A DNA stretch of 40,609 bases from a virus (lineage: Duplodnaviria; Heunggongvirae; Uroviricota; Caudoviricetes), in the IMG/VR virus record IMGVR_UViG_2778261163_000009; one strand, 5' to 3'. Positions 1-36,614 of the stretch are shown in pieces; position 1 is the stretch's first letter, and each line of letters begins with the position of its first letter. The notes beneath the pieces are model-generated. The model worked only from the letters and a program-made list of their open reading frames with translations, was not told where the DNA came from and did no database searches. Position numbers and translations under genes: made by a program.

Positions 1-39
1 ATGGTGCTCATAAATCTGGTATACTTACCTTTACACATT

Positions 40-402
40 GGGGCTGATTCTGGATTCGACGGGATTTGCGAAACCCAAGGTGCATGCCGAGGGGCGGTTG
101 GCCTCGTAAAAAGCCGCAAAAAATAGTCGCAAACGACGAAAACTACGCTTTAGCAGCTTAATAACCTGCTTAGAGCCCTCTCTCCCTAGCCTCCGCTCTT
201 AGGACGGGGATCAAGAGAGGTCAAACCCAAAAGAGATCGCGTGGAAGCCCTGCCTGGGGTTGAAGCGTTAAAACTTAATCAGGCTAGTTTGTTAGTGGCG
301 TGTCCGTCCGCAGCTGGCAAGCGAATGTAAAGACTGACTAAGCATGTAGTACCGAGGATGTAGGAATTTCGGACGCGGGTTCAACTCCCGCCAGCTCCAC
401 CA
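40..402 (+). ncRNA. ssrA: tmRNA (SsrA), complete, ending in CCA
   Basis: Begins GGGGCTGATTCTGGATTCGACGGG, contains the tag-coding region and ends with the tRNA-like acceptor arm ...GGTTCAACTCCCGCCAGCTCCACCA; matches the enterobacterial ssrA sequence from memory. Confidence 0.9.
358..402 (+). repeat. Left copy of 45-bp direct repeat (ssrA 3' end); prophage attachment core (attL)
   Basis: ATGTAGGAATTTCGGACGCGGGTTCAACTCCCGCCAGCTCCACCA occurs identically at 35175..35219. Confidence 0.8.
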
Positions 403-411
403 AATAAATCA

Positions 412-445
412 AGGGGTTACGTGAAAGCGTAGCCCCTTTTTCTTT
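412..445 (+). terminator. Rho-independent terminator downstream of ssrA
   Basis: Stem AGGGGTTACG / CGTAGCCCCT followed by a TTTTTCTTT run. Confidence 0.6.
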
Positions 446-575
446 GGTAGTGGCGGCAAAATGGCGATAGCCATGGACTAGGGTTGGGTACACGCACATT
501 GCCCTCTATCCTTATGAGTGATCGCACACACGCCTCTACTTTCAAGCTATATTCTAATCTCAATATGAGGCTACT

Positions 576-1289
576 ATGGACTTCAACCTGAACAAAAAAA
601 TGCCAGTTAATAGATATCTTGTGATAATAGTTTTTGTCCTTTTCATCTTAGCCTGTATGCAGTTTATTTATCTTTGCCTTCGTTCATTAAGCATTGCCCC
701 AAACTATACGGGGACTGTAAGTGACATTATAATAGCTACAACAAATATTATTTTAGCTACCTACGCCGTTCGTGCATTCAAAAACTTATTTAAAGATAAA
801 CTATCCGATAATGCCATTAGTAAAATAGATACAGCATTGATGTCTCTCGATGATTGCATAGATAGTTTTTCAAGCTTATTTTTAAATATGACACTTATTA
901 AGATTTATAAAAACACTAATAACCCCAAGGACCCTCAGTTAGTTAAACAGCTCGATGAAGCAGCAAAAAACATTGAAAAAGCAACAAGTTCAGCCTACAA
1001 GGCAAGATCTATAATTGACTCATTAACTCGTTGGAATATAAGCTTAAACACAGAAAAAGGAATAAGACTAAACCAACTTACCACTGATGTTTTTGAGTTA
1101 GGCATGCAGGCAACAAATATGTATATCGCACTAATAAATGAAATAAACCCTAACTCCCCATACAACTCTTTAACTCATAGACCATTTGATGAGTTATTTA
1201 ACGAATTTAATGAAGAAAGGACCAGAGTTGAAGACGAAAGCAATGAATTAAAAGAGTTCTCTATTCATGAAATATTTAAAATCAAATAA
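576..1289 (+). CDS. Hypothetical membrane-anchored protein (prophage cargo, AT-rich)
   Basis: 237-aa ORF with a GAGG ribosome-binding site; hydrophobic N-terminal helix (LVIIVFVLFILACMQFIYLCL) then a charged, probably helical domain; lies between attL and ogr; no family recognised. Confidence 0.6.
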   Translation: MDFNLNKKMPVNRYLVIIVFVLFILACMQFIYLCLRSLSIAPNYTGTVSDIIIATTNIILATYAVRAFKNLFKDKLSDNAISKIDTALMSLDDCIDSFSSLFLNMTLIKIYKNTNNPKDPQLVKQLDEAAKNIEKATSSAYKARSIIDSLTRWNISLNTEKGIRLNQLTTDVFELGMQATNMYIALINEINPNSPYNSLTHRPFDELFNEFNEERTRVEDESNELKEFSIHEIFKIK

Positions 1290-19671: not shown

Positions 19672-20505
19672 TCAGCAATTTGTCAGAGTGTCAGCGGGGG
19701 CATTACCGCCTGTTGCACGCTGGCGGTAGTCCTGGCGGCTGTCTTCATGGCTCAGCTTGTCCACCAGTTCATTAAAGGTGGTCAGCTGTGCCTGCAGGGC
19801 TGTCTCCAGCTCAGACAGGCGTTCTTCCTGTTCAGACAGGGATTTTTCGGTGCGCGCACTCAGGTTTTGCTGCTCAGTGGCGACCAGCTCCACGGCCTTA
19901 TGCACATCAGAGAACCGGGCATCATCGGACTGCTCTTTTTTGGTGAACAGCGCCGTGACACGGGCAAACAGGGATGGTTTTTCGTCCTGGACTTCTTCCA
20001 GTTCGATCACCGTTTCCTCTGCAGCGGTAAAGAGATTGGCGGGGTTCTGCTTGCGGTTTGCCAGCGGGTTATGGGCTGCACTGGCGCTGAATGTCAGCAT
20101 TTCAGTGCCCAGACTGGCAGGGTCATCAGTGGCAGCCAGGCCAACCAGGTAGGCTTTGCCCGTATCAGCAAACTTCGGGCTGACTTCCATAGAGGTGAAT
20201 AATTTCTGGCCTTTTTTCACCAGCTCCACCAGGGACTCTGTTGGCTCAACGTCGGCATACAGCGCCATCTTGCCTGCCAGCGGACCTTCCGTGATTTCTT
20301 CAGCAAACAGCGCCGTCACCTTGCCGTAGCGGTTAAAGGTGCTGTCCGGCAGATAAGACTTGATGTGCTCAAGGTTAATCAGCGCGGTATACACCGCCGG
20401 GTTGTAGCTGGCTGCCATCTGTTCCAGCCATTCACGCTGGATTTCGCGTCCGTCGGTGGTGGCACCTTCCACCCCGATGCGAAAACGCTTTGCTTTCACT
20501 GTCAT
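19672..20505 (-). CDS. O: Capsid scaffold protein O
   Basis: 277 aa, P2 gpO-like. Confidence 0.85.
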   Translation of the reverse strand: MTVKAKRFRIGVEGATTDGREIQREWLEQMAASYNPAVYTALINLEHIKSYLPDSTFNRYGKVTALFAEEITEGPLAGKMALYADVEPTESLVELVKKGQKLFTSMEVSPKFADTGKAYLVGLAATDDPASLGTEMLTFSASAAHNPLANRKQNPANLFTAAEETVIELEEVQDEKPSLFARVTALFTKKEQSDDARFSDVHKAVELVATEQQNLSARTEKSLSEQEERLSELETALQAQLTTFNELVDKLSHEDSRQDYRQRATGGNAPADTLTNC

Positions 20506-20647: not shown

Positions 20648-22414
20648 ATGAACACCACACTGACACCCGCAGATCTCGATCCCCGTCGGCAAGCCATGCT
20701 GCTGTACTTTCAGGGATACCGCGTAGCCCGCATTGCTGAAATGCTGGGCGAGAAAGTTGCAACCGTTCACAGCTGGAAAAAACGCGACAAGTGGGGTGAC
20801 TATGGGCCGCTGGATCAGATGCAGCTCACCACCGCCGCACGTTACTGCCAGCTCATTATGAAGGAGCACAAAGAAGGGAAAGATTTCAAAGAAATTGATC
20901 TGCTGGCGCGCCAGTCGGAGCGCCACGCGCGGATCGGCAAGTTTAACAATGGCGGCAACGAAGCCGATTTAAACCCTAACGTCGCCAACCGCAACAAAGG
21001 CCCGCGCCGTCAGCCTGAAAAGAATGTTTTCACCGATGAACAGATTGAGAAGCTGGAAGAAATCTTCCATTCCTCCATGTTCAACTACCAGCGTCACTGG
21101 TGGGAAGCCGGAAAAACCAACCGCATCCGCAACCTGCTGAAGTCACGCCAGATCGGCGCAACCTTCTATTTTGCCCGTGAAGCCCTGATTGACGCCCTGC
21201 TAACCGGACGTAACCAGATTTTCCTTTCTGCCAGTAAGGCACAGGCGCACGTCTTTAAGCAGTACATCATCGACTTCGCCAAAGAAGTGGAGGTGGAGCT
21301 GAAAGGCGATCCGATGGTGCTTCCCAACGGGGCCACACTGTATTTCCTCGGCACCAATGCCCGCACTGCCCAGAGTTACCACGGTAACCTGTATCTGGAT
21401 GAATATTTCTGGATACCGAAATTCCAGGAGCTGCGCAAAGTGGCATCCGGTATGGCTATTCACAAAAAATGGCGACAAACCTATTTTTCCACGCCATCCA
21501 GCCTGACACACAGTGCTTATCCGTTCTGGTCCGGTGCGCTGTTCAACCGTGGGCGCAACAAAGCCGATAAGGTGGACATCGACCTGTCCCACAACAATCT
21601 GGCCCCCGGCCTGCTGTGCGCAGACGGGCAATACCGCCAGATAGTCACCGTGGAAGATGCGGTGCGCGGCGGATGTAACCTGTTCGATCTCGACCAGTTG
21701 CGCATGGAGTACAGCCCGGACGAATACCAGAACCTGCTGATGTGCGAGTTCGTGGACGATCTCGCGTCCGTGTTCCCGCTCAGCGAACTGCAGGCGTGCA
21801 TGGTGGACAGCTGGGAAGTCTGGACCGACTTTCATGCACTAGCCCTGCGCCCGTTTGGCTGGCGCGAAGTGTGGATCGGTTATGACCCGGCAAAAGGTAC
21901 GCAGAACGGCGACAGTGCCGGATGCGTGGTGGTGGCTCCGCCAGCCGTGCCGGGTGGTAAGTTCCGCATTCTTGAGCGTCACCAGTGGCGCGGGATGGAC
22001 TTCCGCGCCCAGGCTGACGCCATCAAAAAACTGACCGAACAGTATAACGTGACCTATATCGGTATCGACTCGACCGGCGTCGGTCACGGGGTTTACGAGA
22101 ACGTGAAAGCGTTTTTTCCTGCCGTCAGGGAGTTTGTCTATAACCCCAACGTTAAAAACGCCCTGGTACTCAAGGCCTACGACATTATCAGCCACCGCCG
22201 TCTGGAGTTTGACGCCGGGCACACCGACATTGCGCAGTCATTTATGGCAATCCGTCGCGCTACCACTGCCAGTGGCAACCGCCCGACCTATGAAGCCAGC
22301 CGCAGCGAAGAAGCCAGCCATGCCGATCTGGCCTGGGCAACAATGCACGCACTGTTTAACGAACCGCTGCAGGGCGAGTCCGCCAATACCAGCAATATTG
22401 TGGAGATTTTTTGA
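20648..22414 (+). CDS. P: Terminase large (ATPase) subunit P
   Basis: 588 aa, P2 gpP-like. Confidence 0.9.
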   Translation: MNTTLTPADLDPRRQAMLLYFQGYRVARIAEMLGEKVATVHSWKKRDKWGDYGPLDQMQLTTAARYCQLIMKEHKEGKDFKEIDLLARQSERHARIGKFNNGGNEADLNPNVANRNKGPRRQPEKNVFTDEQIEKLEEIFHSSMFNYQRHWWEAGKTNRIRNLLKSRQIGATFYFAREALIDALLTGRNQIFLSASKAQAHVFKQYIIDFAKEVEVELKGDPMVLPNGATLYFLGTNARTAQSYHGNLYLDEYFWIPKFQELRKVASGMAIHKKWRQTYFSTPSSLTHSAYPFWSGALFNRGRNKADKVDIDLSHNNLAPGLLCADGQYRQIVTVEDAVRGGCNLFDLDQLRMEYSPDEYQNLLMCEFVDDLASVFPLSELQACMVDSWEVWTDFHALALRPFGWREVWIGYDPAKGTQNGDSAGCVVVAPPAVPGGKFRILERHQWRGMDFRAQADAIKKLTEQYNVTYIGIDSTGVGHGVYENVKAFFPAVREFVYNPNVKNALVLKAYDIISHRRLEFDAGHTDIAQSFMAIRRATTASGNRPTYEASRSEEASHADLAWATMHALFNEPLQGESANTSNIVEIF

Positions 22415-23448
22415 TGGGAAAGAGTAAGAAGAACCGCGCTGCGTCGACGAAACAGATCCAGCATAAAGGCCAGACTTCAGCCGAAGCATTCAGCTTCGGT
22501 GATCCCGTTCCTGTTCTGGACCGCCGCGAACTGCTGGACTATGTGGAATGCGTACAGATGGATCGTTGGTATGAGCCGCCTGTGAGTTTCGACGGACTGG
22601 CGCGAACCTTCCGCGCCGCCGTGCATCACAGCTCACCGATTGCAGTGAAGTGCAACATTCTAACCAGCACCTACATCCCTCACCCGCTGCTCAGCCAGCA
22701 GGCTTTTTCGCGTTTTGTACAGGACTATCTGGTTTTTGGTAACGCCTACCTGGAGAAACGCACGAACCGCTTCGGTGAAGTTATCGCCCTTGAGCCTGCA
22801 CTGGCAAAATACACCCGACGCGGGTTAGACCTGGATACCTACTGGTTTGTGCAATACGGCATGACTACGCAGCCGTATCAGTTCACGAAAGGCAACATTT
22901 TTCATCTGATGGAACCGGACATCAACCAGGAGATCTACGGCCTGCCCGGTTATCTTTCTGCCATTCCGTCAGCTCTGCTCAACGAGTCCGCCACGCTGTT
23001 CCGCCGCAAGTATTACATTAACGGCAGTCATGCAGGCTTCATCATGTACATGACCGATGCAGCGCAGAACCAAGAGGATGTGAACAACCTCCGCAATGCG
23101 ATGAAAAGCGCCAAAGGTCCTGGTAACTTCCGTAACCTGTTTATGTACTCGCCTAACGGTAAAAAGGACGGGCTTCAGATTATCCCGTTGTCAGAAGTGG
23201 CGGCGAAGGATGAGTTCCTGAATATCAAGAACGTGAGCCGGGACGACATGATGGCGGCGCATCGTGTGCCGCCACAAATGATGGGGATAATGCCTAATAA
23301 TGTCGGGGGGTTTGGGGATGTGGAGAAGGCCAGTCGCGTATTTGTACGTAATGAATTAACGCCCTTGCAAAAAAGGCTACAAGAGCTGAACGACTGGCTG
23401 GGCGAAGAAGTGATTAAATTTACGCCCTATATTCTTTCAGAAGAATAA
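22411..23448 (+). CDS. Q: Portal protein Q
   Basis: 345 aa, P2 gpQ-like; start overlaps the P stop. Confidence 0.9.
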   Translation: MMGKSKKNRAASTKQIQHKGQTSAEAFSFGDPVPVLDRRELLDYVECVQMDRWYEPPVSFDGLARTFRAAVHHSSPIAVKCNILTSTYIPHPLLSQQAFSRFVQDYLVFGNAYLEKRTNRFGEVIALEPALAKYTRRGLDLDTYWFVQYGMTTQPYQFTKGNIFHLMEPDINQEIYGLPGYLSAIPSALLNESATLFRRKYYINGSHAGFIMYMTDAAQNQEDVNNLRNAMKSAKGPGNFRNLFMYSPNGKKDGLQIIPLSEVAAKDEFLNIKNVSRDDMMAAHRVPPQMMGIMPNNVGGFGDVEKASRVFVRNELTPLQKRLQELNDWLGEEVIKFTPYILSEE

Positions 23449-23456
23449 TTCCGAAC

Positions 23457-24155
23457 TTATTTGTTTCTTCTTTGTTCACGCCTTGTCTTGGCTTCGATAA
23501 GGCGTTGAGGTTCAGTGTAAAGCCGTTCTAAAAAAAGATAGGTAAAATCTTCAAGATCCTCAGCAGCAGCTTTATCCAAAATACCTTCATGCGCTCCATC
23601 ATTTCCGTCATCTTTAACGCATTCAGCTAGTTCCCTTAAAGCTTCAGGCAGTAGATGATTATCAAATAACCACTCCATTCTTAACCCTAGGCTTCTCCTT
23701 ATTTTTTGCGCAGGCCCTTGCTCCCCATCAGGAAGAAGTCCTTTTGTGGCATAATCAAGGCAAAGCCTAAACATGGTTGCTGCTGCATTATAACAACCTA
23801 TAGCCAAACATTTCGCCCCTTCCTCATATGCACTATTGATATGCTCAGGTAAGAACTCTGGTGGCTCCTCTACTGCTAAGTCTGCCGGTGATATAGGTCT
23901 AACAACCTCTGCAACTTCCTTTAAGCCGAATATTCCACTTTCCCAATTATAGTCATCTAAAGTTTTATTTTTCGTTAAAGGTCTGCAAAGAAAAATTGTC
24001 GTTTTATGACACTCTCGGCAAACACAATAGACCTCGTACTCGTATGTTTTACCCCCGCCCAATGCATTGTAAACCCTAGTGCAATTCAGCCCATTAACAT
24101 CAAACGCTATTTTTTGTGATCCACATCGTGGACAGTCATCCACTAACATAACCAT
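23457..24155 (-). CDS. Hypothetical zinc-ribbon protein (cargo between Q and cos)
   Basis: 232 aa, GGGAGGAG ribosome-binding site; N-terminal CPRCG...CVCRECH cysteine cluster; C-terminal acidic/His region (DDGNDGAHEG); AT-rich; no P2 counterpart at this position. Confidence 0.6.
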   Translation of the reverse strand: MVMLVDDCPRCGSQKIAFDVNGLNCTRVYNALGGGKTYEYEVYCVCRECHKTTIFLCRPLTKNKTLDDYNWESGIFGLKEVAEVVRPISPADLAVEEPPEFLPEHINSAYEEGAKCLAIGCYNAAATMFRLCLDYATKGLLPDGEQGPAQKIRRSLGLRMEWLFDNHLLPEALRELAECVKDDGNDGAHEGILDKAAAEDLEDFTYLFLERLYTEPQRLIEAKTRREQRRNK

Positions 24156-24265
24156 GTCAATTACTCCTCCCTATGAAAAAAATGAGTTGAAAAATTGAAT
24201 ATTCACGACTTAAAAAGCTAGCCTATTTAACACCATAATTTCATTAATTCAACCATGAGCGCGCG

Positions 24266-24284
24266 CTCGTATCCCCGCCACGCC
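24266..24284. other. cos site (19-nt cohesive end) of the prophage
   Basis: Reverse complement GGCGTGGCGGGGATACGAG resembles the P2/186 cohesive end (GGCG(A/T)GGCGGGGAAAGCA-) and lies where cos is expected next to Q. Confidence 0.6.
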
Positions 24285-24324
24285 TGCCCGCTTTATGTAG
24301 TGGTTTTCATGCGCCTGCATGACA

Positions 24325-24353
24325 TAAGCAAAAGCCCGCCACTCCTGGCGGGC
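24325..24353 (-). terminator. Rho-independent terminator after the 203-aa cargo gene
   Basis: GCCCGCCA-CTCC-TGGCGGGC stem followed by TTTTGCTT on the minus strand. Confidence 0.6.
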
Positions 24354-24444
24354 CTCAGCTAAAACGATCCTCAAACGATCATGCGGATTCATGCGGCATA
24401 GACATGCACAATCTCCAAAGCGGGCATCGAGACTTTTTGGAAAC

Positions 24445-25056
24445 CTACGTAACCACAGTTAATGTGTGCATCCTGTTTCGAATTGCATCACACGTCTCAT
24501 CAAAAAGCTTGGTGATGGTTGTACGGTTCAACTCCGCCTCTTTCCAATAATTTTGCCCGTCAAATTCTGGATCGCTATGCTGAAACGATATTGACTCTGA
24601 AAGGCATTCCTTCCGGAAACGGTCCAAGATTATATAAACCTCTGGTGAGATGAACGGTTTGTTAGATTCAACACTTGTAACAAAAGTGTTAAATGCTTCA
24701 AAAAAAACTTTCAATCTTCTAAATTTTCTCTCTTCAAATGGTTCGTTGGGGTCAACATGATCCAGCGCAGGCCTCAGCTTAAGCACGCTTTCTCTGGTTT
24801 CAAACATCGAATTCCAAATGAGACTATATGCTGATAACTCCTTATCAAAATACGCTTTCGTTACATAAACAGAATTGTCTAACTTAGCCTTTATTCTTTC
24901 ATTAGTTGCACTCAGTTGTGATTGAAATTCAGCAATATCTTTGTTTAGCCGCGACTTATATCTTTCTAAATAAACTTTCCCGATCCAAACAAATATGCCA
25001 GATGCAACAAAAGACACCCCACCCAACGAAGCCAGAACTTTAAAGACTAAATCCAT
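24445..25056 (-). CDS. Hypothetical membrane-anchored protein (cargo between cos and the SOS module)
   Basis: 203 aa; AGGTGGGGG ribosome-binding site; TATAAT-like -10 box about 30 bp upstream; N-terminal transmembrane helix (LVFKVLASLGGVSFVASGIFVWI); AT-rich. Confidence 0.6.
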   Translation of the reverse strand: MDLVFKVLASLGGVSFVASGIFVWIGKVYLERYKSRLNKDIAEFQSQLSATNERIKAKLDNSVYVTKAYFDKELSAYSLIWNSMFETRESVLKLRPALDHVDPNEPFEERKFRRLKVFFEAFNTFVTSVESNKPFISPEVYIILDRFRKECLSESISFQHSDPEFDGQNYWKEAELNRTTITKLFDETCDAIRNRMHTLTVVT

Positions 25057-26024: not shown

Positions 26025-28439
26025 TTAATACAGGTTTCGCCACTTATCATCTTCCTGCAAACGCTGGTTCCGATAGAAGATACGCAGGCCTGCTCCTGAC
26101 GGAATACTGCCGCCGCGAAGGAGTAAATCGACCTCTTTCTCGCTGCCATTAAATCCTCTGGACTTCAGTTCATAGACGAGCTGCTGTCGCTGATGGTCTG
26201 TAATTCGCTGTTTGTAGTCTTTACGCCGTTTCGGTTTCACCAGGCGTAACCTTGCAGCCAGTTCCCGGCGCTCTTTTTTGCTCATACTGTGCAGGTAACC
26301 GTGCAACTCCTTGTCATCCATGCGGGTAATGTCCGTCCTGGTATCCCCATCAGCTGATTTGTCTTTCCCTTGTTGGTTCAAATTTTCAGCAAGGGGACAG
26401 TTATTGCCACGAGTCCAAGGGGCGCAAGCGCCCTGGTCGGCTGCCGCCTCCTGAACATCAACGGCCTTACGAACCATTTTCCACTTCACGGCATGAGTGC
26501 AGATCTTGCCCTCTGCAATAGGTGACCAGATGCCATAAATACGAATGCCGTGATCGCCATAGGCGGTCGGCTCTTCGTTGATTTCATAAGCGGTTCTGAT
26601 GAGGTGATATTTGCGGGGAACCAGTACGCCGCCCTGCTTCATGATGTAGGTGGCAAAACAACCAGCATCAGCAGCAGCCAGGATGGCATCAAGGCGTGGG
26701 TTATCCAGTACCGGCGCACCTGCTTTTTTGTCCCCCTGTTGCCTTGCCGCCTGACCAGCCAGCAATCGCAGTTCACGGTAAGCCTGACGCCCCGGAATGC
26801 CAAAGAAGCGGAATTGCTGAACACGATGCAGAGACGCCCAGGCATTAACGTATTCAGCATTATCACGCAGGGATTTCCCCGTTTCCTTGCTGATCTCGCC
26901 AGCCAGACCACGCCCGTCAATGTTCTTACTGATGTATTTCGCGATGTAGCTTGTTGGCGTTCCTTTGCGCGGGTTAATCAACTCAGACTTAAAGCGCGGC
27001 CCAGTGTTATTGCCCAGCTCCTCGCGGTCTTCACGGATGGCAAACTTACGCAGTAATGCAGTGATGGCACGGCGGTCTTTTTTGCGCATGAAACACAACA
27101 GGTGCCAGTGAACTGTGCCGTCATGATGCGGCTCAGCCACCCGCACGCCATACCAGCGCAACCCGGCTTTGTGCATCGCCTTACGAAATGCAGCAAACAT
27201 GCCGACCAGATAATCGCTGCTTTGTCTTACCGTCGCGTTTGTCCAGGTCGGGTTTGGTCTGCCGTTATTGAGCGTGGAATGGAAACGTGACGGACAGGTG
27301 ATGGTGTAGAAAACGGCGCAGTCACCGCGCATTTCCGCGATAAGCTCCAGACCTTTAACACAGGCCATCATCTCATTGCGGCGATGCGCCGGGTTGCTGC
27401 TGCTGGCGTTTACCACATCCTCCATGTCCAGCGTGTCGCCGTCTTCGTTCACCAGTTCATGAGAACGGAAAAACTCCAGCGACTTACGGCGCTGCTCACG
27501 TTTATGCATCACGGCTTCATAGCTGACATAGGGAGATGCTTTTTTGCTGACCAGGCAGACAGCACGCAACTGCTCTTCCCGCCATTCGCAACGCATCTTC
27601 CATAATTTCCGATACCACCAGTCGGCGCACAACATACGCGCCAGCGAACCCGGAATGAGTTCATAGGGCACGGGTTTACGGCGGTTTCTTTTCCGACGGA
27701 GTTGCTCAAACGCAGGAGGGATTACATCCAGACGCAGGGTTTCCGCTGCCACCTTTTCCCATGTCTTGCGGATTTCTTCTGGCTTAACGTCATCGGTGGC
27801 ATACAAATCACCACAAGCTGCATCAAGGCACATGCTCATATGCGCGGCAACAAGGGTAGACAGGCGCTTCACCTGATCCTGACTCATTTCAGGCAGGATC
27901 AGCAGGCCGTCCAGCCCTTCATGGCTTGCCATAAAGCGAAAAGAAGTGGATAGCTGACTCTCGCGTACATGCTCCAGTCGTTCCAGACATGGCTTAATCG
28001 TCTCACGCAAATAGCGGGAATAAGCCTTTGGCCTGCCCAGGCTGCTGAAGTATTCAATACGTTGCATCAGCGGCTTGCTGATATGGGAAGGCTGGGCGTT
28101 GACGTCCGCCAGAATGACCATATCCGGATTAAAACGCTGCTGCTCATGCGCCAGCTTTGCCCGACTAATGAGCTTATCCTGCTCGATTTCGCGCTGGACA
28201 GGATCACGGGATTCATTAAAGAAATAACGCTCCCAGACCTGATCACTCAGCGCCTCACGGCGCAGCTGTTCCTGCTCGTTATCGGCAGCGTACAGAGTGA
28301 TCAGGTTTGAAAGCGCAGAAACCGGCGCAACTTCCGCCGGGTCCAGATAAGGGTTAATGGCCTTTTTCGGGCTGCTCCATGAGAATGCTGCTGCGACCTC
28401 GTTAAAGCCGCTGCAGTTGTTCATATCAGCATGGCTCAT
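26025..28439 (-). CDS. A: Replication initiation protein A (rolling-circle nickase)
   Basis: 804 aa, P2/186 gpA-like. Confidence 0.85.
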
Positions 28440-32167: not shown

Positions 32168-33181
32168 ATGACCATCAGAAAACAGCCGAACGGAAAATGG
32201 TTGTGTGAGTGCTATCCCAATGGACGCAATGGCAAGCGCGTGCGTAAGCAATTTGCTACGAAAGGCGAAGCCATTGCGTTTGAAAGCTTCACAATGGAAG
32301 AAGTGAATAAAAAACCGTGGTTGGGTGAAAAGGATGATCGGCGACGCCTATCAGAATTAATTGAGCTTTGGTATTCCCTGTATGGTCAAACACTCGCAGA
32401 CCCCAAGCGCCTCATGGCGAAACTTAGAATTATCTGTAATGGTCTAGGCGATCCCATCGCCTCAGAACTGACAGCTGGTGACTTTACAAAATACCGCGAA
32501 GCACGGTTAAAAGGTGAAATACGAAATGAAGATGGCACACTTATGTCGCCCGTAAAGCCCCGTACGGTAAACCTTGAACAGCGCAATCTATCATCTGTGT
32601 TCGGTACATTAAAAAAACTAGGACACTGGTCAGCACCAAACCCGCTGGCAGGACTTCCGACCTTCAAAATTGCCGAAGGTGAGCTGGCTTTTCTTTCCAC
32701 GGACGAAATCAAGCGCCTGTTGGCGGCATGTGCTGAATCTCAAAACCCTAGCTTACTAATGATTGCAAAAATATGCCTAGCTACTGGCGCACGGTGGAGT
32801 GAAGCCGAAAATCTGCAGGGCCACCAAATATCGAAATACCGAATTACTTATACAAAAACAAAAGGCAAGAAAAACAGAACAGTACCCATATCACAGGAGC
32901 TGTATGACGAACTCCCAAAGAACAGAGGGAAGTTATTCTCACCATGTAGAAAAGCCTTTGAACGAGCAGTAAAACGGGCAGGTATAGATCTACCGGATGG
33001 CCAATGCACCCACGTGCTGCGACATACGTTTGCTAGCCACTTTATGATGAATGGCGGGAACATACTTGTGCTAAGGGATATTTTGGGACATTCGGATATC
33101 AAGATGACCATGGTTTACTCACATTTCTCACCAGATCATCTTGAAGATGCCGTTACTAAGAACCCATTAAACTTGATATAA
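32168..33181 (+). CDS. int: Tyrosine integrase (P2/186 type)
   Basis: 337 aa; C-terminal catalytic region HVLRHTFAS...LGHSDIKMTMVYSHF with the R-H-R-Y tetrad; directly follows cI. Confidence 0.9.
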   Translation: MTIRKQPNGKWLCECYPNGRNGKRVRKQFATKGEAIAFESFTMEEVNKKPWLGEKDDRRRLSELIELWYSLYGQTLADPKRLMAKLRIICNGLGDPIASELTAGDFTKYREARLKGEIRNEDGTLMSPVKPRTVNLEQRNLSSVFGTLKKLGHWSAPNPLAGLPTFKIAEGELAFLSTDEIKRLLAACAESQNPSLLMIAKICLATGARWSEAENLQGHQISKYRITYTKTKGKKNRTVPISQELYDELPKNRGKLFSPCRKAFERAVKRAGIDLPDGQCTHVLRHTFASHFMMNGGNILVLRDILGHSDIKMTMVYSHFSPDHLEDAVTKNPLNLI

Positions 33182-33194
33182 AACAGCCAAAATT

Positions 33195-34952
33195 CTATTT
33201 CATCAAGTAATCCAATTCATCCTTCATAGGTATAACTTGCTCATAAAGTCTATGGTAGGATTTTCCAATTGCCCCCCTAAATTGAATAAGTTTAGGGGAA
33301 AAGCTACCGATATTAATAATATGTTCTTGCGCTATACCAGGATATGGATCGATAAAAATAATCTCTGTCATACCTAACTGATAAGCTTTTTTAGCACAAA
33401 GTTCACAAGGGCTAGCTGTAGTATATAGTTTCCCTCCATTAATACCGACCCCACCATATTTGGCCAATTGCAAAAAAGCATTCTCCTCTGCGTGCAATGC
33501 ACGGGTATGCACTTGATTCCCTTTCTTTTCATCATCAAGGCTGTTGTGAATATCTTTAAAACAATATGGCAAATTAAGTCCTTTAAAAACAGTAGAACTT
33601 GAATCACTCGCCCTTATTTTTATTAAATTTTCTTTAACTTTACTCCTAAATTTTGTATTACTTCGTTCGTACAGGCTATATGTTCCCTCATCAAAATCAT
33701 GCAATAACCCATCAAATGACCTCATAGAACAAGGAACTTGACCTTTTGCTACATCGTTCCAACCAACTGACTTGATAGAGTTATCATTATCTGTCACAAC
33801 CGCCCCTACTTGCCTAGATATACATCCAGAATTTAGTTTTACAGTATATGCAACTTGCATAACCCTTTCCATGGCGGTAGGAGATATTAATCCAGGGTGT
33901 TGCATTAATGATACATACCACGCAATTTGTGCTTTGAGAAAGTTATTATTATCAAATTCTTTTTTAGGGTTAAAAAAATGTATATCTGAAATTTCAATGC
34001 ATTTTTTTACATTAGGATTAGTAAGATGATTATACTCGCCATCTCCTTTACCAGATTCTTCATCATTAATTTTTTTTATCTGTTCCTCTGAGAACTTATG
34101 TAATTTCTTTAAATATCTGGTTCGATGTTCATCTGGTGCATTTATAGAAACCAGATGGAATGCAGCATATCTATCTTTGAAGAATTTAGCTTCATACGGG
34201 TTACGTATCGCATCAATGACTATATACGCTTTATTATTCTTTACTTTTCTAATTATTTTAATAACACGATTAATTGTTTCAGGTAAATGAAAAACAGCCT
34301 TTGGAATAAAGTCTTGATTTTCATAATCTACATCAACCTTCCCTATTCTTCTAATTGACTTTCCTGCTGACTGATATAGCTCAATATATAAACCTGGCTC
34401 TAGTTCATTTAATTCCCTTTTAAAATCCCGTGTAAATTTTCGAGTAAGAGTTAATATCCTAATAAAGGTATCTTTCCCCCTGCCTTTAAAGTCAATCTCA
34501 TCATCATGATTAAGAAGATTTTTTATCACCTTAAGATATTTTATCTTCAACAAACTTTTAGCGAACACACCATTAACAACCAGTTTCTTAGCTGCCTTAA
34601 AGGAAATCGAATTTTCTTTTTTATCGGGGATTTTACTTGCAGAAAACTGAATGAATTTAGCTAAGGCCGATGGAGATAAAAGGAGCAAATATATTGAAAT
34701 GAGATCACTGACCTTTATCGAATAGAAGTTCTTCCAATGAGTCTCTGCAAAATTTTTTACTATTTCATAACGCCGCAAATCCAATCCTTTATAATACTCA
34801 GCCAAGACGTTACTATCTGGAAAAGATATTTCTTTTTGTTCTAAAATATTTGCTGCAGTAGTACATCCTGAGCCAGTTCTCCCAGTTAAACCAATAAGAA
34901 TAAATTGACTATTTTCTAAAAAAAGCTCACTAATAAATTTGTGTTCTCTCAT
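33195..34952 (-). CDS. P-loop NTPase/kinase-like plus zinc-dependent cytidine/deoxycytidylate deaminase fusion (AvcD / dCTP-deaminase-like defence protein)
   Basis: 585 aa; N-terminal Walker-A-like ILIGLTGRTGSGCTT; C-terminal deaminase signature HTRALHAEENA ... ASPCELCAKK (H-A-E and P-C-x-x-C zinc ligands); AT-rich; sits between int and attR. Confidence 0.6.
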   Translation of the reverse strand: MREHKFISELFLENSQFILIGLTGRTGSGCTTAANILEQKEISFPDSNVLAEYYKGLDLRRYEIVKNFAETHWKNFYSIKVSDLISIYLLLLSPSALAKFIQFSASKIPDKKENSISFKAAKKLVVNGVFAKSLLKIKYLKVIKNLLNHDDEIDFKGRGKDTFIRILTLTRKFTRDFKRELNELEPGLYIELYQSAGKSIRRIGKVDVDYENQDFIPKAVFHLPETINRVIKIIRKVKNNKAYIVIDAIRNPYEAKFFKDRYAAFHLVSINAPDEHRTRYLKKLHKFSEEQIKKINDEESGKGDGEYNHLTNPNVKKCIEISDIHFFNPKKEFDNNNFLKAQIAWYVSLMQHPGLISPTAMERVMQVAYTVKLNSGCISRQVGAVVTDNDNSIKSVGWNDVAKGQVPCSMRSFDGLLHDFDEGTYSLYERSNTKFRSKVKENLIKIRASDSSSTVFKGLNLPYCFKDIHNSLDDEKKGNQVHTRALHAEENAFLQLAKYGGVGINGGKLYTTASPCELCAKKAYQLGMTEIIFIDPYPGIAQEHIINIGSFSPKLIQFRGAIGKSYHRLYEQVIPMKDELDYLMK

Positions 34953-35287: not shown

Positions 35288-35384
35288 ACGTCTATTGTCG
35301 TCCAGTGAGAATTGCTGAGAACTACGAGTTATGGCACCCTGAATGGGACCCACTAAGAAGGGTCCAAAAACCGAGGGTCCCAAA

Positions 35385-36614
35385 ATGGCAAAAATCGCTA
35401 AGAAGCTCACTGACACTGAAATCAAAAGCACCAAGCCAGCCGATAAAGAAATCAACTTGTTTGACGGTGATGGTCTGATTCTACGAATCGCTCCTTTGGC
35501 GAAAGGAGGCAAGAAAAATTGGTATTTCAGGTATGCAGTACCAGTGAGCAAGAAAAGAACCAAAATGAGCCTTGGGACATATCCTCACCTTACCCTTGCA
35601 AGAGCCAGAGCCTTACGTGATGAATATCTCTCCTTTCTGGCAAATGGTGTTGATCCCCAAATCCATAACAACGATAAGGCGAAGGCATTAAAGAGTGCTA
35701 CTGAGCACACTCTCCAAGCCGTAGCGCGGAAATGGTTAGATGAGAAGGTAAAGACATCAGGTATCTCACAAGACCATGCAGCAGACATCTGGCGCAGCTT
35801 AGAGAGAAATGTCTTTCCCGGTCTGGGTAATGTCCCTATCAATGAGATCCGACCTAAGCTCTTAAAACAACACCTTGATCCTATTGAGCAACGAGGCGTA
35901 TTGGAAACTCTACGCCGTATCATTTCACGTCTGAATGAAATCTTCCGGTGGGCAGCTACTGAAGAACTTATTGAGTTCAACCCGGCTGACAACCTTGGTC
36001 AAAGATTCAGTAAACCAAAAAAGCAAAATATGCCTGCCCTTCCCCCAAGCGAATTGCCAAGGTTTATGGAATCTTTGACGAATGCGTCAATCCGGTTGGA
36101 AACACGTATGCTAATTGAATGGCAATTGTTGACATGGGTTCGTCCGGGTGAAGCCGTTCGCGCAAGGTGGTCTGATATTGATACAACCAACAGCATTTGG
36201 AACATTCCTGCTGATTTCATGAAAATGAAAAAGCTTCACAAAGTTCCTTTGAGTAAAGAAGCTTTGCGCATCCTTGAATTAATGAAATCAATAAGTGGGC
36301 ATAGAGAATGGGTTTTCCCCAGCATAAAAGCGCCTCTTAATCATATGCATGAACAAACAGCCAACGCAGCTATCATCCGAATGGGGTTCGGAGGCGAGCT
36401 TGTAGCTCACGGTATGCGTTCTATTGCACGAACAGCGGCAGAGGAGTCTGGTAAATTCAGAGCTGAAGTTCTTGAGGCAGCGCTTGCCCACTCGAAAAAA
36501 GATGAAATTATCGCAGCATACAATCGTGCAGAATATCTGATAGAGCGACAGAGTTTGATGCAATGGTGGAGTGATTACGTTCAAGCTCAAAGATCAAATG
36601 CTCTGGTAGCCTAA
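35385..36614 (+). CDS. P4-family tyrosine integrase (IntA/CP4-57-like)
   Basis: From MAKIAKKLTDTEIKSTKP...DGDGL.LRI... which resembles E. coli IntA; C-terminal catalytic region with HGMRS and AYNRAEY; the ORF track starts 14 codons earlier. Confidence 0.8.
   Translation: MAKIAKKLTDTEIKSTKPADKEINLFDGDGLILRIAPLAKGGKKNWYFRYAVPVSKKRTKMSLGTYPHLTLARARALRDEYLSFLANGVDPQIHNNDKAKALKSATEHTLQAVARKWLDEKVKTSGISQDHAADIWRSLERNVFPGLGNVPINEIRPKLLKQHLDPIEQRGVLETLRRIISRLNEIFRWAATEELIEFNPADNLGQRFSKPKKQNMPALPPSELPRFMESLTNASIRLETRMLIEWQLLTWVRPGEAVRARWSDIDTTNSIWNIPADFMKMKKLHKVPLSKEALRILELMKSISGHREWVFPSIKAPLNHMHEQTANAAIIRMGFGGELVAHGMRSIARTAAEESGKFRAEVLEAALAHSKKDEIIAAYNRAEYLIERQSLMQWWSDYVQAQRSNALVA

Follow-up and report, generated by a model that had tools for sequence, protein, structure and literature searches.

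A 232-residue protein encoded between the portal gene and the cos site of a P2-like prophage probably acts as a single-protein abortive-infection system of the RAZR type, carried as prophage cargo; we put the probability of this reading at about 0.55. The protein joins an N-terminal Cys4 zinc ribbon to a C-terminal DUF4145/HEPN domain, and sequence comparison places it in a separate sister family that is homologous to RAZR, not in the RAZR family itself. Its gene lies in a stretch of 40,609 nucleotides, here called the window, in which the prophage runs in reversed orientation relative to the P2 map, with the order O, P, Q, 232-aa gene, cos, four small genes and A. The features of the locus are:

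19672..20505, minus strand: scaffold gene O
20648..22414, plus strand: terminase gene P
22414..23448, plus strand: portal gene Q, convergent neighbour of the 232-aa gene (from the annotation of the near-identical CEA212U prophage)
23457..24155, minus strand: RAZR-like candidate single-gene defence protein, zinc ribbon plus DUF4145/HEPN, 232 aa (open reading frame, Pfam DUF4145, PHROG 1305)
24156..24257, minus strand: cassette-specific AT-rich upstream region, 29% G+C, putative promoter (homology break after the cos core; G+C)
24164..24171, minus strand: Shine–Dalgarno sequence GGGAGGAG, 8 nt 5′ of the ATG (read from the sequence)
24258..24316, no strand assigned: cos packaging site (corresponds to the annotated cos of Cartapus)
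24445..25056, minus strand: further low-G+C cargo gene of the hotspot, between cos and gpA, 203 aa (PHROG 26391 match alone)
26025–28439: replication gene A

The open reading frame list of the window gives the gene an ATG start. Its stop codon occupies 23457–23459 and the TAA of Q 23446–23448, leaving 8 bp between two convergent stops, and the coordinates thus confirm the preliminary description, which had placed the gene between Q and cos in just this arrangement and had credited it, rightly, with a strong ribosome-binding site of its own. P2 itself has Q at 187..1221 and cosL at 1..19 with the terminator tQ alone between them, in keeping with the earlier remark that the P2 portal gene sits directly beside cos. 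The 232-aa gene has 41.3% G+C (31% GC3) against 51.9% (62% GC3) for Q, 55.9% for P and 53.5% for A; the description of the gene as AT-rich therefore holds relative to flanks of 52–56% but not in absolute terms. A dN/dS of 0.04–0.05, measured against alleles of 81% nucleotide identity or 81–83% protein identity, shows that this is a real gene kept by purifying selection. The region at 24156..24257 is presumably its promoter region and contains an imperfect TTGAAT-N16-TTAAAT at 24252..24225; a promoter consensus scan found no sigma-70 consensus on the strand of the gene, which counts against the RAZR-type reading. A terminator scan and a separate hairpin scan both returned no terminator between Q and the 232-aa gene.

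On the far side of the gene from Q lies the 19-nt cos core, GGCGTGGCGGGGATACGAG at 24266..24284 (minus strand). It matches the annotated cos of Escherichia phage Cartapus, a prophage of strain LF82 (Peduoviridae), and resembles that of P2, GGCGAGGCGGGGAAAGCAC; the motif is kept in every P2-like locus examined. The first gene of Cartapus, gp01, is 99.6% identical to the 232-aa open reading frame and is annotated as ‘DUF4145 domain-containing protein’. A 47-aa open reading frame at 24249..24392 (minus strand) overlaps cos, has no family match and is probably spurious as a gene.

The segment between gpA and gpQ is a published hotspot (Rousset et al. 2022, PMC9122126), the ‘P2 defence hotspot #1’ of Vassallo et al. 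2022 (PMC9519451). Located between A and Q in a segment that varies among collinear P2-like prophages, the 232-aa gene is accessory cargo of this hotspot. The same arrangement is listed in a supplementary table of Rousset et al. (PMC9122126) under WP_000245245 and WP_112020959, labelled ‘DUF4145’, and the DUF4145 gene of the hotspot stood outside the set of constructs tested in that study. The window gene shares its locus with the other P2 hotspot cargo, is low in G+C and is swapped among P2-like backbones; it lies on the Q side of cos, whereas the P2 cargo genes old and tin lie on the gpA side and have unrelated mechanisms.

Surveying the slot between Q and cos in 73 P2-like IMG/VR contigs that contain the cos motif (L108–L187), we found it filled in 71, by cargo that falls into 52 protein clusters; a DUF4145 family member occupies it in three of the 73. 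Every slot open reading frame of at least 80 aa in these contigs converges on Q. The gap between the stop of Q and that of the cargo has a median near 38 bp in the 71 filled slots, and a terminator-like hairpin sits in this gap in 50 of the 71 cassettes; the DUF4145 cassette, with its gap of 8 bp, lacks one. Ten annotated slots (nine E. coli prophages and P2) were also inspected by content. They hold the window-type gene, DUF262/GmrSD (twice), an Old-like ATP-dependent endonuclease, SieB, an S8 peptidase with an AAA ATPase, and two hypothetical proteins; the slot is empty in P2 and in APEC O18. Sister prophages further carry a KAP NTPase near the slot and, judged by eye, TIR-, retron RT- and HipA-like slot proteins. 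The variable slot that had been expected at this junction is thus borne out, and the presence of known defence genes in it in sister prophages counts in favour of the RAZR-type reading.

Homology between the prophages ends right after the cos core and inside the last ~25 codons of Q. Aligned portal C termini (L007–L009 and L095–L099) show that these last ~25 residues, at 23370..23448 in the window, vary together with the cargo; the boundary of the cassette therefore falls within the 3′ end of Q. The cassette of the window is 99.6% identical to that of LF82 and the adjoining Q 94% identical, which indicates cassette exchange. Among 5,426 complete E. coli genomes, 43 contain the 232-aa gene and 1,206 the 3′ part of a P2-type Q, and the same slot of P2-like prophages holds homologues at 60% identity in E. 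coli and 55% in Serratia. What the survey adds to the published hotspot is its division by cos into two sub-slots, the Q-proximal one being nearly always filled, and always by genes convergent on Q. In the other, the 203-aa gene at 24445..25056 (38.6% G+C) has no convincing Pfam match and no PADLOC match; in another DUF4145-carrying prophage a DUF2971 protein takes its place, which marks this as a second variable cargo position.

Elsewhere in the window, the left end holds the tmRNA gene ssrA (40..402, plus strand), followed by a 237-aa open reading frame (576..1289, plus strand) that precedes the prophage late genes and has no Pfam or PADLOC match. A 585-aa protein encoded at 33195..34952 (minus strand) matches the PADLOC dCTPase model (dCTP deaminase defence, E = 2e-146); Pfam likewise detects a cytidine/dCMP deaminase domain in it. 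Its gene stands just outside the P2-like integrase gene (32168..33181) and before a second integrase gene (35343..36614), and its place between two integrases suggests that a second defence-carrying island abuts the prophage.

The 232-aa protein divides into the following parts, all encoded on the minus strand:

23976..24155: Cys4 zinc-ribbon domain, codons 1–60, putative sensor, with CPRCG at 8–12 and CRECH at 46–50 (conserved Cys)
23871..23975: hypervariable insert and linker, codons 61–95, absent from the RAZR family (pairwise identity, hhalign)
23541..23870: DUF4145/HEPN domain, codons 96–205
23589..23615: KDDGNDGAH, codons 181–189, counterpart of RAZR R146-x7-H154 (alignment to PDB 9y9c)

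Pfam DUF4145 (PF13643) matches residues 114–203 with 30.3 bits (gathering cut-off 23.1, E = 4.5e-7), which bears out the HEPN/DUF4145 assignment that had been offered as uncertain; precomputed PF13643 hits exist for nearly all of the 120 homologues listed, and the region has the all-alpha fold of HEPN domains. The whole protein matches phrog_1305 (E = 8e-53), whose label is ‘DNA binding protein’; NCBIfam gave no match, and the sole match among the PADLOC defence models is a weak one to PD-T7-4 (26.6 bits). Homologues of equal length number about 600 in a word-indexed protein database and 939 cluster representatives in an exhaustive search.

The N-terminal cysteine cluster of the preliminary description proves to be a pair of CxxC knuckles. 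C8, C11, C46 and C49 are invariant in 25 close homologues; in 46 homologues reaching down to 24% identity, C8, C46 and C49 remain invariant and C11 is present in at least 90%. The pattern CxxC-N(25–46)-CxxC recurs in 226 of 266 family members. In profile searches this domain weakly matches zinc ribbons, those of RPA12 and L33, and in the AF2 model codons 1–60 are all-beta.

Residues 182–191 form the segment DDGNDGAHEG, previously described as conserved-looking. Most of it is indeed invariant in the close family (G184, N185, D186, G187, A188, H189 and G191), with D183 nearly so and D182 and E190 varying slightly, but in the wide set of 46 H189 is the only invariant residue and N185 is kept in at least 90%. 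R130 is invariant in both the close set of 25 and the wide set of 46, and K181 in the close 25; the loop 184–188 has pLDDT below 50 in the AF2 model. A catalytic R-x(4–7)-H motif is kept in about 80% of DUF4145 proteins (Anantharaman et al. 2013, PMC3710099). Here the histidine is present as H189 and the arginine position is Lys181, a site at which lysine may or may not serve catalysis as far as sequence can tell. Among 257 family members, 168 have K at this position, 73 have R and 16 a different residue. The N-terminal part evolves fastest: mean pairwise identity is 42% over residues 1–60, 22% over 61–95 and 67% over 96–205, and dN is 0.126 in the N-terminal half versus 0.030 in the C-terminal half.

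The closest characterized system is PD-T7-4, found as a ‘Zn finger-HEPN’ single-gene system in E. coli UMB1727 (Vassallo et al. 2022, PMC9519451) and renamed RAZR by Zhang et al. (Nature 2026, PMC13017515; PDB 9Y9C). In RAZR an N-terminal Cys4 zinc finger is the sensor and a DUF4145/HEPN domain the RNase, with catalytic residues R146 and H154, and alanine at either abolishes defence (PMC13017515). RAZR alone is non-toxic; 24 copies assemble around rings of ~170 Å (phage portal or Erf-like protein) and become active, cleaving single-stranded RNA non-specifically in an abortive infection, and the zinc-finger domain, the most variable part, sets specificity (PMC13017515).

Searches of the PDB by single-protein phmmer, or by hmmsearch with a profile of 25 close homologues, returned nothing relevant. 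A profile of 46 family sequences reaches RAZR (9y9c) at E = 1.2e-5, aligning residues 97–220 with RAZR 76–190 and setting K181 opposite R146 and H189 opposite H154. With the RAZR family alignment rebuilt from database relatives, hhalign matched the two families at 98.5% probability (E = 3.7e-15) in an alignment of 155 columns that begins at the second CxxC knuckle and reaches the C terminus, with a gap of ~30 residues in the RAZR profile at codons 61–95. BLASTP aligns 106 residues with a bona fide RAZR relative at 29% identity, and within the HEPN domain the pairwise identity to RAZR relatives is 23–29%. The two families thus have a common ancestry over the HEPN domain and the second zinc knuckle. 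They also share the architecture of a single protein of ~220–230 aa in which a Cys4 zinc ribbon (zinc binding is predicted here) precedes DUF4145/HEPN, the aligned catalytic histidine, a GN dipeptide, the invariant helix-1 arginine in R-L-C-L (R130), the fast-evolving zinc-ribbon half, the lack of a partner gene and carriage on mobile elements.

The differences are equally clear. The window protein is 19–29% identical to RAZR, and its N-terminal part is longer, with the hypervariable insert of ~30 residues. Where RAZR has R146, and RAZR relatives have arginine in 88 of 88 cases, it has K181; lysine at this position in about two thirds of the family counts against the RAZR-type reading. So does the PADLOC PD-T7-4 score of 26.6 bits (profile positions 39–165 of 211), which falls far below the 326, 295 and 264 bits of RAZR relatives and sets the protein apart from the known members. 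Foldseek found no match of the 232-aa protein to the RAZR chains in the PDB, and among viral structures (BFVD) it returned one full-length match, which was uninformative. Homologues in Stx, Burkholderia and Gordonia phages, considered as true PD-T7-4 members, score equally weakly (16–21 bits) and were rejected. The close relatives of RAZR examined lie beside the integrase of a small island, unlike the window gene in its P2 slot; Klebsiella and E. coli genes of RAZR type (L102, L104–L107) are found directly 3′ of an integrase gene. Recorded calls of such genes are often 168 aa from an internal Met, with loss of the first CxxC knuckle. One relative (L105, 6869..7507) has a 212-aa open reading frame that overlaps the integrase stop by 8 bp, encodes the full zinc finger and scores 326 bits against PD-T7-4; it reads CPYC...CLCC, the cysteine order of the window family.

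Relatives of the window protein were detected by tblastn in at least 134 GTDB species genomes (one representative per species), from Proteobacteria, Nitrospirae, Planctomycetes, Verrucomicrobia, Omnitrophota and other phyla; the search used the close-homologue alignment, and neighbourhoods were taken from 80 of the 134 loci. A P2-type portal gene adjoins the relative in five of the 80. Of 299 neighbouring open reading frames in these 80 species, 278 are singletons, the P2 portal and terminase are the only recurrent neighbours, and no conserved partner gene emerged from the 80 loci. Pfam and PADLOC scans of 142 neighbouring open reading frames revealed no enriched family. Outside P2 phages the neighbourhoods are mixed and contain few defence or mobile genes, which counts against the RAZR-type reading; a Pseudomonas homologue adjoins an integrase. 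Gene 1 of Gordonia phage Meyran, an unrelated actinophage, is a homologue of 27% identity (L005, 94..783); the first gene from the cohesive ends, it immediately precedes the terminase genes, a cos-adjacent position like that of the window gene. A 224-aa homologue of 25% identity in Shigella phage 75/02 Stx (L003, 3040..3714) bears the annotation ‘DNA binding protein’; flanked by a Ren-like exclusion gene and a RelE/ParE-type module, it belongs to the early region of Stx and lambdoid phages.

Several other defence proteins combine related domains differently. DS-38 (WP_001313577.1; DefensePredictor, DeWeirdt et al.) is a validated E. coli single-protein defence with HEPN and a zinc finger unlike that of PD-T7-4. 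At 366 aa it is not the 232-aa protein, an identity we considered and rejected, and accessions of the window type are absent among the rows listed of the tables of DeWeirdt et al. The QOYR contig set (ECOR series) carries the 232-aa gene, and DS-38 likewise comes from a QOYR contig; if the QOYR strain was part of the Vassallo fosmid library, the 232-aa gene did not emerge from the T4, lambda-vir and T7 selections, which would count against the RAZR-type reading. In BxaP (PMC10799925) and Ishtar (bioRxiv 10.64898/2026.07.06.735840) DUF4145/HEPN is the presumed effector against phages or plasmids; both proteins have HEPN at the N terminus and unrelated domains at the C terminus, and neither has a zinc ribbon. 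The literature searched yielded no phage challenge or other experiment on the family of the window protein.

The homology to RAZR/PD-T7-4, an abortive-infection RNase, supports the earlier suggestion that the gene may be a defence or abortive-infection gene. Its stand-alone occurrence, its faster-evolving zinc-ribbon half and its hotspot setting, with cassette exchange and homologues in the same slot, favour the RAZR-type reading as well. Read as a RAZR-type system, the protein would be made by the lysogen as an inactive oligomer, and its variable Cys4 zinc ribbon would recognize a structural or recombination protein of a superinfecting phage, which in RAZR is the ~170 Å ring of a portal or Erf-like protein. 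Target binding would reposition the paired C-terminal HEPN domains and His189, with Lys181 and Asn185, would form an active RNase site; non-specific RNA cleavage would then stop translation and abort the infection. We infer each of these steps, from expression in the lysogen through RNase activity, trigger and ring-templated activation to the abortive outcome, by analogy with RAZR. Because the N-terminal domain is larger by ~30 residues and Foldseek finds no RAZR match, trigger and activation geometry may differ; and because lysine replaces arginine and the sensor domain is different, the mechanism may not agree with that of RAZR in its details, so we weigh separately a reading in which the trigger or substrate differs.

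This would be an anti-phage HEPN nuclease activated unlike RAZR, one whose cue would not be a large protein ring but, for instance, a nucleic acid, a modified nucleotide or a phage protein in monomeric form, and whose Lys-type site may have another substrate, such as a specific tRNA or mRNA. The longer zinc-ribbon domain with its RAZR-absent insert, the substitution in the catalytic motif and the failure to match RAZR chains structurally all agree with it, as do the quite different partner domains carried by the DUF4145 proteins DS-38, BxaP and Ishtar. The order of elements is nonetheless that of RAZR (CPxCG, beta hairpin, CxxC, beta strand, P-x-x-(L/M)-P linker, HEPN), the lengths are nearly equal (232 versus 219 aa) and homology extends as far as the second zinc knuckle, and we therefore hold this reading to be possible but rather unlikely. 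Still less probable, in our estimate, is a more specific proposal: that the protein belongs to a separate branch of zinc-ribbon HEPN immunity, widespread and of the Lys type, whose enlarged, hypervariable sensor recognizes a phage assembly other than that of RAZR, and that P2-like phages tolerate it through antisense RNA. Late-operon read-through in the phage's own lytic cycle would produce antisense RNA over the 232-aa gene and silence it, keeping the protein from firing on the resident portal. The antisense idea stems from the convergence of the gene on its own portal gene, with 8 bp between the stops and no recognizable terminator. We dropped it as a general property of the slot in view of the hairpins in 50 of 71 other cassettes, and retain it for the DUF4145 cassette alone.

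Readings in which the protein is an anti-defence decoy, a toxin–antitoxin component or a DNA-binding regulator are poorly supported. A weakened Lys-type protein might act as a dominant negative, co-oligomerizing with host RAZR-type proteins or shielding its own phage's portal, and a gene that adjoins the portal gene of its carrier, related to a higher-order oligomer that binds portals and lacking the catalytic arginine, would suit such a role. Yet H189 is invariant, N185 is retained throughout most of the wide family and purifying selection acts strongly across the HEPN domain; in many phyla the Lys form is common on chromosomes, away from phages, the other occupants of the slot are defence rather than anti-defence genes, and 19–29% identity is too weak for co-assembly with RAZR to be likely, all of which makes the decoy very unlikely. 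It is likewise very unlikely that the gene encodes a DNA-binding regulator with a zinc ribbon, or the HEPN toxin of a toxin–antitoxin or addiction module stabilizing the prophage. Toxins of HEPN–MNT modules are commonly HEPN domains (PMC3710099) and a HicB-like gene lies directly upstream of the Serratia homologue, but the adjacent conserved antitoxin by which such modules are recognized appeared neither in the 80 loci nor in the window slot, where there is no MNT gene. The PHROG 1305 label, which would favour a regulator, appears to derive from zinc-ribbon annotation and not from a test, and conservation is concentrated in the nuclease-type HEPN domain.

The hotspot locus was already known, the gene had been catalogued there and the closest system was solved in 2026. 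New here is a sister family, distinct and widespread, whose motif is of the Lys type and whose sensor domain differs from that of RAZR; comparison with RAZR suggests a role in defence. If the gene defends, zinc-ribbon HEPN sensors would form a larger superfamily with RAZR as one of its branches, HEPN catalysis could be probed with a naturally occurring Arg-to-Lys change in the active site, and the very different sensor domain of the family would provide a test of how general ring-templated activation is. The locus also raises a question of self-tolerance, as an immunity protein of a portal-sensing type is encoded beside the portal gene of the very phage that carries it.
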